Below are positions 13,155 to 16,602 of a DNA stretch of 64,000 nucleotides, piece by piece; position 1 is the stretch's first letter; every line of letters starts with the position of its first letter. Location: NCBI RefSeq assembly GCF_041886205.1, contig NZ_CP169029.1; one strand, 5' to 3'. Under the pieces are notes generated by a model. It saw only the letters and a program-made list of their open reading frames with translations. It was not told where the DNA came from and made no database searches. Position numbers and translations under genes: made by a program. Source of the DNA: Escherichia coli (GTDB lineage: Bacteria; Pseudomonadota; Gammaproteobacteria; Enterobacterales; Enterobacteriaceae).

Positions 13155-13373
13155 TCAGGCGAGTTTTGCCTGATTGATTTGACTCAGTGGCTCATTGACA
13201 TCGAAAACTTTGGCGACAACTTCCTCAACGCCGAGATTTTTAAGTCGGGCAGTATGTTTTTCCAGATAGGCAAGGGCGCTTTTTTCATCAGTAAAAAGAT
13301 AGATCCCACCGGCTTCGTGGTTCTTTTCACTTTCTGTCCATACCTTCCACAGAAAACCAGGTTCCTGATTAAT
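13155..13373 (-). pseudogene. ydhR: ydhR, 3' fragment (codons about 31-101) separated from its 5' end by the IS insertion
   Basis: Reverse-complement translation reads ..[71 protein letters not shown]-stop; the frame is broken at 13373/13374 by the IS terminal repeat. Confidence 0.85.
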
Positions 13374-13415
13374 TGAACCGCCCCGGGTTTCCTGGAGAGT
13401 GTTTTATCTGTGAAC

Positions 13416-14306
13416 TCAGGCTGCCAGATCATCGTTTCCGATGGAAGCATAATAAGCTTTTTCTGCTTCTGCCGGAGGAGTATGGCCCAGCCTTTCCAGC
13501 AATCGTCGATTGTTATACCAGTCCACCCACGTGAGTGTGGCCAGTTCCACTTCTGCACGGTTTTTCCAGCTCTTACGGTGTATTACCTCCGCTTTGTAAA
13601 GACCATTGATGCTCTCCGCCATCGCGTTGTCATACGAGTCGCCTGTACTTCCTGTTGATGCCAGTAATCCGGCTTCCTTAAGCCGCTGTGTGTAGGCCAG
13701 CGATACATACTGAGAACCTTTATCACTGTGATGGACCGTGCCGGACGGTCGACGGGCCCATAACGCCTGCTCCAGTGCATCCAGCACGAATGTCGTTTCC
13801 ATGGACGATGAGACCCGCCACCCCACGATGTATCCGGCAAACACATCAATGATGAACGCCACATAGACGAAGCCCCGCCATGTGCTGACGTAAGTAAAAT
13901 CAGCCACCCACAGCTGGTCAGGTCGTTCTGCCACGAACTGACGGTTTACGCGGTCGCCTGCGGCAACGGCTTTCCGGCTGATGGTCGTACGGACCTTTTT
14001 ACCCCGGAGAACACCGGCAAGTCCCATAACCGCCATGAGACGTGCCACAGTGCATCTGGCCACTCTGATACCTTCCCGTAACAACTGACGCCAGACTTTA
14101 CGCACACCGTATACCTTGTGATTTTCATCGTATACGCGCTGTATCTCTTTCTTCAGCCAGTCATCGCGCTGCGCACGGGCACTGCGTTTATCCGGATGAT
14201 GTCGCTGTTGCTGACAGTGGTAATACGTTGACGGGGCAATATGCAGTTCGCTGCATAGCGGTCCGACCCCGTACTGCTCACGCAGCTTATCCAGCAGTGG
14301 CATCAT
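13416..14306 (-). CDS. IS3-family transposase OrfB (DDE catalytic domain)
   Basis: 296-aa [33 protein letters not shown].. with an integrase/DDE-type core; overlaps orfA in the -1 frame. Confidence 0.9.
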
Positions 14307-14629
14307 TTTTTCCAGAGGCGGTCGAACTCCGCCTTCGCAAAATAAGCGGAAGCCTGGCGAAGGATATCGTTACTGCGGCGCAGTTCACGATTTTCACGTT
14401 CCAGCTCTTTCAGACGCTGACGTTCAGCGGTGGTGAGCCCTCCATCACCGCCCCCGGTATCCCGCTCATGCTGGCGAACCCAGACACGCAGAGTCTCCGG
14501 CGTACAGCCAATCTTTGGAGCAATGGAACAAATTGTCGCCCATTGTGAGTCATATTCGCTCTGACTTTCCAGAACCATACGGACTGCCCGTTGACGGACT
14601 TCGGGGGAAAAACGAGTATTTTTAGTCAT
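14303..14629 (-). CDS. IS3-family transposase OrfA (helix-turn-helix and leucine-zipper part)
   Basis: 108-aa [64 protein letters not shown]..., ending ..RLWKK at an A6 slippery run immediately before the orfB start. Confidence 0.9.
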
Positions 14630-14683
14630 CCTGTTTACCTCTTTCTCAGGAAGTTTAGTCTCCAGGATTCCCGGGGCGGTTCA

Positions 14684-14773
14684 AATCGACTCAGCAAGCG
14701 GTTTAAGCTGCTCAGCCATTGCGTCGCCAAATGGGCCATTAAAAGCAAAATGAAGTTGTAACAAAGTTGCCAT
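14684..14773 (-). pseudogene. ydhR: ydhR, 5' fragment (first 30 codons) upstream of the IS insertion
   Basis: Reverse complement encodes [30 protein letters not shown], then runs into the IS end. Confidence 0.85.
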
Positions 14774-14880
14774 AGCGATTCTCCTTCTGATAACGCATAC
14801 GAAGACAGTGTAAATCTTTTAACGTATTGGATACAGAGAAGAAACAGAGGGAAAAAGGAGAAGACCAGATTAAGAAAATC

Positions 14881-14957
14881 TGGTGCGTCCGAGTGGACTC
14901 GAACCACCGACCCCCACCATGTCAAGGTGGTGCTCTAACCAACTGAGCTACGGACGC
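14881..14957 (-). tRNA. tRNA-Val, first of a tandem pair (valV/valW locus; which copy is which not resolved)
   Basis: 77-nt reverse-complement sequence GCGTCCGTAGCTCAGTTGGTTAGAGCACCACCTTGACATGGTGGGGGTCGGTGGTTCGAGTCCACTCGGACGCACCA with encoded CCA end; anticodon read as GAC. Confidence 0.9.
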
Positions 14958-14961
14958 AGGA

Positions 14962-15038
14962 TGGTGCGTTCAATTGGACTCGAACCAACGACCCCCACCA
15001 TGTCAAGGTGGTGCTCTAACCAACTGAGCTATGAACGC
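14962..15038 (-). tRNA. tRNA-Val, second of the tandem pair
   Basis: 77-nt reverse-complement sequence GCGTTCATAGCTCAGTTGGTTAGAGCACCACCTTGACATGGTGGGGGTCGTTGGTTCGAGTCCAATTGAACGCACCA; differs from its neighbour only in the acceptor and T stems. Confidence 0.9.
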
Positions 15039-15345: not shown

Positions 15346-16602
15346 ATGGGATCTGATGCGAAAAACTTGATGAGCGACGGGAATGTGCAAATTGTTAAGA
15401 CCGGCGAGGTCATTGGCGCGACGCAACTTACTGAAGGCGAGTTGATTGTTGAAGCTGGCGGAAGAGCCGAAAATACCGTGGTCACGGGGGCTGGCTGGTT
15501 GAAAGTGGCAACCGGTGGGATCGCCAAATGTACACAGTACGGTAACAATGGCACGCTATCGGTCAGCGACGGTGCCATTGCCACAGATATTGTTCAGTCC
15601 GAGGGAGGCGCAATTAGTCTCTCTACGCTCGCTACGGTTAATGGCCGCCATCCCGAAGGTGAATTCAGCGTTGATCAGGGTTATGCCTGCGGTTTGTTGC
15701 TGGAAAATGGCGGTAACCTGCGTGTACTGGAAGGACATCGCGCGGAAAAAATCATTCTCGATCAAGAGGGCGGCCTGTTGGTTAATGGGACAACCTCAGC
15801 GGTCGTGGTAGATGAAGGTGGTGAATTGTTGGTGTATCCAAGTGGGGAAGCCAGCAATTGTGAGATTAATCAGGGCGGCGTTTTTATGCTGGCCGGGAAA
15901 GCCAGTGATACGTTGCTTGCTGGTGGCACCATGAATAATCTCGGTGGTGAAGACTCTGACACTATTGTTGAGAATGGATCCATTTATCGTCTGGGGACGG
16001 ATGGCCTTCAGCTCTACAGTTCCGGTAAGACGCAAAACCTGTCCGTGAATGTGGGTGGTCGGGCTGAAGTGCATGCCGGTACGCTGGAAAATGCGGTAAT
16101 ACAAGGTGGGACAGTGATCCTGTTGTCACCCACCAGCGCGGACGAAAATTTTGTCGTAGAGGAAGATCGCGCACCGGTTGAACTGACCGGGAGTGTTGCA
16201 TTACTGGACGGCGCTTCAATGATTATTGGCTATGGCGCAGATCTGCAACAATCAACGATTACTGTACAGCAGGGCGGTGTATTGATTCTCGACGGCAGTA
16301 CGGTAAAAGGTGACAGTGTCACTTTAAATGTTGGTAACATCAATCTAAATGGCGGAAAACTGTGGCTAATCACTGGTGCGGCAACGCATGTGCAACTGAA
16401 AGTGAAACGCCTGCGCGGAGAGGGAGCGATTTGCCTGCAAACCAGTGCGAAAGAAATTTCACCTGACTTCATCAATGTGAAAGGGGAAGTTACCGGTGAT
16501 ATACACGTTGAGATAACAGATGCCAGTCGGCAAACTCTGTGTAACGCACTGAAACTACAGCCAGACGAAGACGGGATTGGCGCAACGCTCCAGCCTGCGT
16601 AA
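15346..16602 (+). CDS. ydhQ: AIDA-like repeat protein YdhQ (autotransporter-passenger-like, no translocator domain)
   Basis: 418-aa ORF rich in Gly/Thr/Val imperfect repeats typical of a beta-helical adhesin passenger; no obvious signal peptide or C-terminal beta-barrel. Confidence 0.8.
   Translation: MGSDAKNLMSDGNVQIVKTGEVIGATQLTEGELIVEAGGRAENTVVTGAGWLKVATGGIAKCTQYGNNGTLSVSDGAIATDIVQSEGGAISLSTLATVNGRHPEGEFSVDQGYACGLLLENGGNLRVLEGHRAEKIILDQEGGLLVNGTTSAVVVDEGGELLVYPSGEASNCEINQGGVFMLAGKASDTLLAGGTMNNLGGEDSDTIVENGSIYRLGTDGLQLYSSGKTQNLSVNVGGRAEVHAGTLENAVIQGGTVILLSPTSADENFVVEEDRAPVELTGSVALLDGASMIIGYGADLQQSTITVQQGGVLILDGSTVKGDSVTLNVGNINLNGGKLWLITGAATHVQLKVKRLRGEGAICLQTSAKEISPDFINVKGEVTGDIHVEITDASRQTLCNALKLQPDEDGIGATLQPA

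Follow-up and report, generated by a model that had tools for sequence, protein, structure and literature searches.

A 64,000-nucleotide stretch of the Escherichia coli contig NZ_CP169029.1 (RefSeq assembly GCF_041886205.1; hereafter the window) carries on its minus strand an intact IS629-type insertion sequence (IS) of the IS3 family, inserted in ydhR. We consider it likely that in the recoding region of this element the principal -1 slip takes place on a U_UUU_G motif under the control of an apical loop-internal loop (ALIL) pseudoknot, and that a run of six adenines (A6) at the stop codon of orfA, which an earlier note on the same DNA had proposed as the programmed frameshift site, is a secondary site at most. 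Slippage of this kind would join the products of two overlapping open reading frames (ORFs), orfA and orfB, into a single OrfAB transposase.

Slippery motif and pseudoknot upstream of the orfA stop

The junction of the two ORFs contains what the earlier note had read from it, namely an A6 run and an overlapping ATGATG in the -1 frame, on the minus strand. orfA (14303..14629, minus) is read in frame 0 and encodes a protein of 108 amino acids that matches HTH_Tnp_1 (Pfam PF01527) over residues 1-87, the exact product belonging to a protein cluster of 5002 members; its 3' end reads CTC TGG AAA AAA TGA (CUGGAAAAAAUGA), with the stop codon TGA at 14305..14303. orfB (13416..14306, minus) lies in the -1 frame and encodes 296 amino acids from its first ATG, with matches to PF13276 (HTH_21) and PF00665 (rve, the DDE integrase core); its exact product occurs on 370 contigs, and the corresponding cluster includes 'IS629 transposase OrfB'. 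The AUGAUG start codons of orfB occupy 14301..14306 (minus), and the first AUG overlaps the orfA stop as AUGA, the final A of the A6 run being the first A of orfB. Two consecutive overlapping ORFs, with orfB at -1 relative to orfA, are what is expected of an IS3-family element, and together with a full-length match to an IS3 transposase model they bear out the arrangement in frames 0 and -1 that had been claimed.

What the earlier note overlooked is that the -1 frame is already open upstream of orfB and contains a better-supported slippery site. ORF analysis places a frameshift window of 66 nucleotides (nt) at 14303..14369 (minus), with frames 0 and -1 both open and the -1 frame extending 21 codons upstream of the orfB ATG, from 14369; since both frames are open over 14369..14303, a slip anywhere in this interval would yield a fusion protein. 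The U_UUU_G motif (14338..14342, minus; frame 0 UAU UUU GCG), which we take as the primary conserved -1 site, lies 27-31 nt upstream of the A6 run and is separated from stem 1 of the ALIL pseudoknot by a 5-nt spacer. The ALIL region as a whole (14232..14348, minus) matches Rfam family RF01497 with 120.2 bits (gathering score 50; E=3e-32) over the full model, positions 1-117, with no truncation. The consensus of this family starts cGCuUAUUUUGCccAGGCGG, in which a conserved UAUUUUGC and a 5-nt spacer are followed by stem-loop 1 (GGCGG-AGYUCGA-CCGCC); at the position equivalent to the A6 run it reads AAgaaaUGA and is poorly conserved.

Relatives of the element were chosen with a profile of OrfB only, so that the set is unbiased at the junction. 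This profile recovered 80 loci out of the genomes of ~100,000 species, to which plasmid relatives were added; the resulting sequences come mostly from alpha-, beta- and gammaproteobacteria, have OrfB identities of 60-98%, and provide 75 non-redundant junctions and 70 distinct sequences. In 72 of the 75 non-redundant junctions a U_UUY in frame with orfA is separated from stem-loop 1 by exactly 5 nt, and the remaining three keep TATTTTGC but with a spacer insertion of 14-41 nt, so that U_UUY is kept in 75/75. The slip codons at the 72 junctions are TAT TTT (44), TAT TTC (14), TTT TTC (12), TTT TTT (1) and TGT TTT (1). At every one of these 72 the synonymous third position before the slip codon is U (TAT 58 vs TAC 0, TTT 13 vs TTC 0; column entropy 0), against a background in the same elements in which TAT makes up 37% of Tyr codons and TTT 24% of Phe codons. 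U_UUY is the sole Z_ZZN motif common to all 70 distinct sequences, and an A-run of at least five at the orfA stop is present in only 5/75 relatives.

The pseudoknot is conserved along with the motif. Stem-loop 1 (14317..14333, minus), the 17-nt hairpin GGCGG-AGUUCGA-CCGCC, folds with -7.5 kcal/mol, or -9.1 kcal/mol with a flanking A-U pair; it is 99.7% paired across the 70 distinct relatives and contains invariant synonymous positions within the stem. Stem-loop 2 (14232..14271, minus) comprises 40 nt and folds with -16.4 kcal/mol. Six pairs are possible in the window copy between loop 1, GUUCGA (14327..14322), and the internal loop of stem-loop 2, UCGGAC (14266..14261). This loop-loop helix is 99.8% paired over the 70 relatives and shows compensatory changes at two pairs (C-G to U-A and G-C to A-U); the window copy itself carries a U23-A87 variant where the family majority has C23-G87, and the change is compensated. 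Over the whole ALIL structure 94.3% of cells are paired, as opposed to 30-44% in slid controls, and none of 500 shuffles reaches the observed values. The minimum free energy of the whole 126-nt region was indistinguishable from that of shuffled sequences (z = -0.59), and the structural support for the ALIL thus comes from covariation, not from folding energy.

Published work on related elements is consistent with this placement. Sharma et al. 2014 give the rule that the hairpin starts 4-10 nt after the motif, and the IS3411 hairpin, at 17 nt, is the smallest in their set (PMC4066793); stem-loop 1 has this same size, and starting 5 nt 3' of U_UUU_G it obeys the rule for that motif alone, the A6 run falling outside it. 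In the ranking of tetramers in the same study, U_UU.C and U_UU.U come just below A_AA.G, and A_AA.A comes last of the six active ones. According to a 2016 review (PMC5009743), stem 1 of the IS3411-type ALIL follows closely on the 3' side of the shift site, and stem-loop 2 is a further 44-104 nt away. That the ALIL raises -1 frameshifting in vivo was reported for the IS3411 isoform by Mazauric et al. 2008, as represented in the papers that cite it. The supplements of PMC4066793 mention neither IS3411 nor IS629, and a literature search for IS629 together with TTTTG returned no match.

The two candidate slip sites predict fusion proteins that are closely similar, both of 404 amino acids and differing in only 11 linker residues. 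OrfAB contains HTH_Tnp_1, HTH_21, rve and rve_3, and hence the N-terminal helix-turn-helix (HTH) and C-terminal DDE core of such transposases; against NF033516, the NCBIfam equivalog for IS3 transposases (cut-off 160), the fusion made at UUUUG reaches 370.2 bits, slightly more than the 365.3 bits of the A6 product, with the profile covered from 1 to 369 of 369. An exact-sequence look-up found the UUUUG-shifted fusion on 379 contigs under the name 'IS3 family transposase', and the A6-shifted fusion on one contig as WP_085959878.1, 'IS3-like element IS629 family transposase'. The RefSeq protein on the identical copies of CFT073 and 23AR0151 is WP_151327001.1; its accession differs from that of the A6 product, and it is therefore, by elimination, the product of the upstream site. 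The presence of two different fusion proteins in public databases for the same DNA (379 contigs vs 1) reflects the two candidate sites.

Several further observations concern the pseudoknot and the comparative set. In 31/70 relatives the 3' end of stem 1 carries a C_CCN tetramer (C_CCG, C_CCA or C_CCC) in frame with orfA (column 32 of alignment A2, window 14317); motifs of this type are weakly shift-prone (PMC4066793), and the window copy is without it. The apical part of stem-loop 2 (columns 95-106 and 97-104 of alignment A3; window 14254/14243 and 14252/14245) pairs in the window copy and in one other member of its enterobacterial subclade (L006), and not, in that register, in the other eight; in those eight the upper stem may adopt another register or be dispensable. 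Short insertions lie exactly between U_UUU_G and ALIL stem 1 in L017 (~855-900), L020 (~855-900) and L071 (~870-890). The inserts of L017 (+41 nt, Rhizobiaceae) and L020 (+40 nt, from a metagenome-assembled genome (MAG) of Rhodospirillales) have their flanks in common, CCTCC..CTC and TGCCGGGC, and compensatory changes set their central hairpins apart (GGTGATTGC/GCAATCACC vs GGCGAATG/CATTCGCC); the two taxa would seem to have received, at one and the same position, a small mobile or repeat element that contains a hairpin. The insertion-bearing copies are probably dead, given that their reading frames are broken. Lastly, IS629 with OrfB 96-98% identical to that of the E. coli element was found in two Firmicutes-labelled assemblies, a Clostridia MAG (L006; contig CAMBHV010000085.1) and Terrisporobacter mayombei (L007; a 1.1-kb contig). 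With contigs this short, and with low coverage of the one from Terrisporobacter, contamination or a binning error is more probable than transfer.

The A6 run at the orfA stop codon

The A6 run occupies 14311..14306 on the minus strand (T6 on the plus strand) and forms, with the orfA stop UGA, a candidate secondary -1 site (14303..14311, minus; frame 0 AAA AAA, an A_AA.A tetramer). Runs of this length are infrequent: there are 80 A or T runs of at least 6 in the window, which corresponds to an expectation of ~0.04 per 66 nt per strand. The run begins 5 nt past the 3' end of stem-loop 1 and ends 34 nt before stem-loop 2; as it lies 3' of stem-loop 1, which the ribosome has already melted at that point, the ALIL pseudoknot could not stimulate slippage there. 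It conforms to the A_AA.A rule alone and not to the heptamer X_XXY_YYZ, for frame 0 reads UGG AAA AAA UGA and a P-site tRNA-Lys would face GAA after the slip. The run is not ancestral, and it is plausibly a secondary, lineage-specific minor site.

The lineage in question is an enterobacterial subclade of ten sequences, made up of the window copy, a MAG copy and copies from Klebsiella, Serratia, Salmonella, Enterobacter and Mixta, with nucleotide identities down to ~75%. Within it CUGGAAAAAAU[G/A]AUGCC is invariant, the A6 run is kept in 10/10, and the orfA stop is UGA or UAA. According to the fold, a hairpin, UGCCAC...GUG(A)GCA (14275..14302, minus), can form 3-4 nt after the run. Its helix is 86.7% paired over the ten sequences and attains eight perfect pairs in Serratia oryzae; at pair 51-69 six sequences have A-U, the other four have G-C, and no sequence is unpaired. 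Each of the two states is represented in both sub-lineages, and the two columns fall on third codon positions that are synonymous when read in the orfB frame. This comparison is suggestive of a selected structure, which could possibly be a stimulator of the A6 site or a modulator of orfB initiation. RNA folding, which the earlier note had recommended as a search for a downstream stem-loop or pseudoknot, yielded a hairpin 4 nt after the A6 run, while the pseudoknot belongs to the upstream U_UUU_G. A different hairpin, UGAUCG...CGAUCA, can form from the orfA stop in many alpha- and betaproteobacterial relatives that are without the A-run (alignment A2, columns 44-49 with 58-63); it could arise by chance from the coding sequence M-I-A-F-I-D-D-H or be a counterpart of the post-A6 hairpin.

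One may tentatively propose that in the enterobacterial IS629 subclade the ancestral U_UUY/ALIL signal was joined, in the course of evolution, by another programmed -1 site 30 nt further downstream, consisting of the invariant A6 run, the stop codon and a covarying hairpin of its own. For IS629, two products have already been published, and Chen and Hu (2006, J Biol Chem 281:21617) reportedly named TTTTG and AAAAT as two -1 signals giving OrfAB' and OrfAB. A stimulator hairpin that covaries and serves the second IS629 site specifically may be undescribed so far. If the proposal holds, two isoforms of the transposase, distinct solely in an 11-residue linker, would come from a single element, and transposition would be tuned through their ratio.

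An alternative scenario, which we regard as possible though rather doubtful, is that the A6 run has no role in recoding and is conserved through double coding (W-K-K-stop in one frame, L-E-K-M in the other), with the AUGA and the hairpin only controlling termination and reinitiation for OrfB. No A of the run can be changed synonymously in both frames at once, and the G of the second AUG is part of the hairpin. OrfB of IS629 has been reported as a distinct product with a lowering effect on transposition (PMC5771124). An ATG, GTG or TTG overlaps the orfA stop in 60/70 relatives, mostly in ones without an A-run, and the other ten have no start codon there; as the start codon so commonly overlaps the stop, the ATGA overlap is better read as a translational-coupling motif for separate OrfB synthesis. 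A stop codon in the A site, however, is known to favour slippage in the P site. AAA is moreover shift-prone with E. coli tRNA-Lys (PMC4066793), and the title of an IS629 paper begins "Two frameshift products...".

It is improbable that the A6 run is the main programmed site for OrfAB, which is where the earlier note had placed the shift. The position of the run is precisely that of the orfA/orfB overlap, all ten enterobacterial relatives keep it unchanged with a stop codon directly after it, a hairpin with one covarying pair follows 4 nt downstream, the RefSeq protein WP_085959878.1 is built on the A6 junction, and A_AA.A tetramers are known among IS elements (PMC4066793). Set against this, 70/75 relatives have no such run and yet retain the ALIL as well as the 0/-1 arrangement; the position of the run, past ALIL stem 1 on the 3' side and 34 nt before stem-loop 2, puts it beyond the action of the dedicated stimulator; its tetramer ranks last among the active ones; the G preceding it precludes a true heptamer; and annotation favours the upstream site by 379 to 1. 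Programmed -1 frameshifting as the route to OrfAB stands, while its assignment to A6 as the principal site does not, the conserved and stimulated motif being a different one, U_UUU_G. That the fusion arises during transcription, with one A too many inserted at the A6/T6 tract by RNA polymerase so that orfB comes into frame, is very unlikely, and was rejected because the run is too short and not conserved: there is a homopolymer at the junction and realignment is known for some IS families (PMC5009743), but bacterial RNA polymerase is generally held to need ~8-9 or more such bases for efficiency, the run is missing from most relatives, and a conserved, dedicated translational stimulator, the ALIL, is present.

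With U_UUU_G as the principal site, we envisage the following course of events. The majority of ribosomes translating orfA would stop at UGA (14305..14303) and release OrfA. A fraction would slip by -1 on U_UUU_G (14342..14338), tRNA-Phe re-pairing from UUU to the overlapping UUU while the ALIL pseudoknot, formed by the apical loop of stem-loop 1 (14333..14317) paired to the internal loop of stem-loop 2 (14271..14232), stalls the ribosome; the outcome would be the 404-residue OrfAB transposase, with its HTH DNA-binding part and DDE core. In a smaller fraction, tRNA-Lys may slip on A_AAA with the slowly decoded UGA in the A site, perhaps aided by the hairpin 4 nt downstream, and a second fusion with a different 11-residue linker would result. 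Some ribosomes would reinitiate at the AUGA and make OrfB alone by termination-reinitiation coupling.

This interpretation should be treated with some caution, as several points weigh against it. Slippage events in this copy, at either site, and their relative efficiencies are what we infer, while the anatomy, conservation, covariation and annotation practice are observed. The counts of contigs carrying each annotated product (379 vs 1) mirror the choices of annotation pipelines, not biology. UAUUUUG coincides in part with a protein motif, A-Y-F, that is conserved as well, an objection that the synonymous-site argument addresses. The relatives are phylogenetically related, and nominal P-values consequently overstate their independence. 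As regards the A6 site, the case for its hairpin consists of one covarying pair in ten sequences. In the 13-nt linker from stem 1 to the orfA stop, where the two frames were compared for purifying selection, the ratio of non-synonymous to synonymous change (pN/pS) is 0.61 in frame 0 vs 0.60 in frame -1; controls behaved as expected, with frame 0 selected upstream and frame -1 downstream. The details of Mazauric et al. 2008 and of Chen & Hu 2006, finally, are given at second hand.

The element and its insertion in ydhR

The complete element spans 13374..14683 (minus), a length of 1310 bp, and has the ends 5'-TGAACC...GGTTCA-3'. An inverted-repeat search located its left and right terminal inverted repeats, IRL (14659..14683, minus) and IRR (13374..13398, minus), with arms of 26 nt that are imperfect and 92% complementary; the outermost base of each arm as output by the tool is flanking DNA. 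The target-site duplication ATT is found at 14684..14686 (upstream copy) and 13371..13373 (downstream copy), on the minus strand, the flanks reading GTCGATT|IS|ATTAATC. TG...CA ends of the inverted repeats and a 3-bp target duplication are in keeping with the IS3 family. The copy is the only one of IS629 type in the window. The assignment to IS629 is based on the 1310-bp length and on the names of identical database proteins; plasmid relatives at ~97% identity carry the name IS1203, and both IS3411 and IS1203 have been described as isoforms of IS629 (PMC3271280).

The interrupted gene, ydhR (13155..14773, minus), is a monooxygenase-like ORF of 101 amino acids that the IS enters after codon 30. 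Deleting the IS and one ATT in silico reconstructs an uninterrupted 101-residue YdhR ORF, and RefSeq labels the flanks of the IS as ydhR or YdhR family protein. Near-identical copies of the element (99.5-99.8%) occur in E. coli and Shigella, and 3042 of 5426 complete E. coli genomes have copies with this identity over 98-99% of the query; RefSeq labels on the E. coli copies include 'IS3 family transposase' and 'programmed frameshift', plus an 'AL1L pseudoknot' feature on identical copies. The exact ydhR::IS junction was found as a contiguous match in 0/5426 complete E. coli genomes, and the insertion in ydhR is thus strain-specific and presumably recent. The copy was previously judged to be functional rather than decayed, a judgement that fits its intact 1310 bp, 26-nt inverted repeats, ATT duplication, full-length match to the IS3 transposase model and two ORFs identical to widespread proteins. 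Given that the copy is intact and its insertion strain-specific, it is probably still mobile; such mobility is relevant to the plasticity of E. coli and Shigella genomes and is unsurprising.

Other insertions were seen at the same locus. Six E. coli genomes have an IS3-family element in or adjoining ydhR at other positions (corresponding to window 13155-14773; L094), and in one of them, strain 23AR0151, the element is this very IS, equally oriented and 12 bp deeper in the gene; ydhR looks like a recurrent IS target. Approximately 200 bp upstream of the IS are two tandem tRNA-Val(GAC) genes (14881-14957 and 14962-15038, minus), which sit between ydhR and a ydhQ-like AIDA-repeat gene starting at 15346 (+). 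An Rfam match to 'Bacterial antisense RNA HPnc0260' (14757-14919, +; 112 bits) is antisense to a tRNA-Val gene in its 3' third, and most likely reflects tRNA-derived sequence in the family model, not a real small RNA.

Comparison with known systems

IS629, its -1 frameshift and the ALIL pseudoknot are already characterised biology. The junction illustrates that an overlap of orfA and orfB with a homopolymer is insufficient to locate the shift site; what decides it is where upstream the -1 frame is open and where the stimulatory structure lies. In comparison with IS629/IS3411/IS1203 and the IS3411 ALIL signal (RF01497), the window copy appears to be the same element, with 99.5-99.8% identity, a full ALIL and U_UUU_G 5 nt before stem 1, and its OrfA, OrfB and both fusions are identical to database proteins named IS629 or IS3 family transposase. 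There is no material difference, the window copy having U23-A87 instead of C-G.

IS3 and IS911 follow the same logic: the two ORFs occupy frames 0 and -1, orfA has a slippery motif close to its end with an RNA structure 3' of it, and the transposase is the fused OrfAB. IS3 uses A_AAG with a pseudoknot, and IS911 uses A_AAA_AAG with a Shine-Dalgarno-like element and a stem-loop. An AUGA overlap for OrfB coupling, as at this junction, was reportedly described in IS3 by Sekine et al. in 1994. These elements differ from the present one in that their motif consists of lysine codons, whereas a U_UUU tetramer is found here, and in that their stimulator is an H-type pseudoknot or a three-way stem-loop, whereas here it is an ALIL whose second hairpin lies ~45 nt further downstream. 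The A6 site also resembles the 'shifty stop' class of -1/+1 slippage, in which a P-site tRNA slips beside a slowly decoded stop codon, since it has AAA in the P site and UGA (UAA in relatives) in the A site; it differs in that its role here is putative and would be that of a minor route beside the pseudoknot-driven site.

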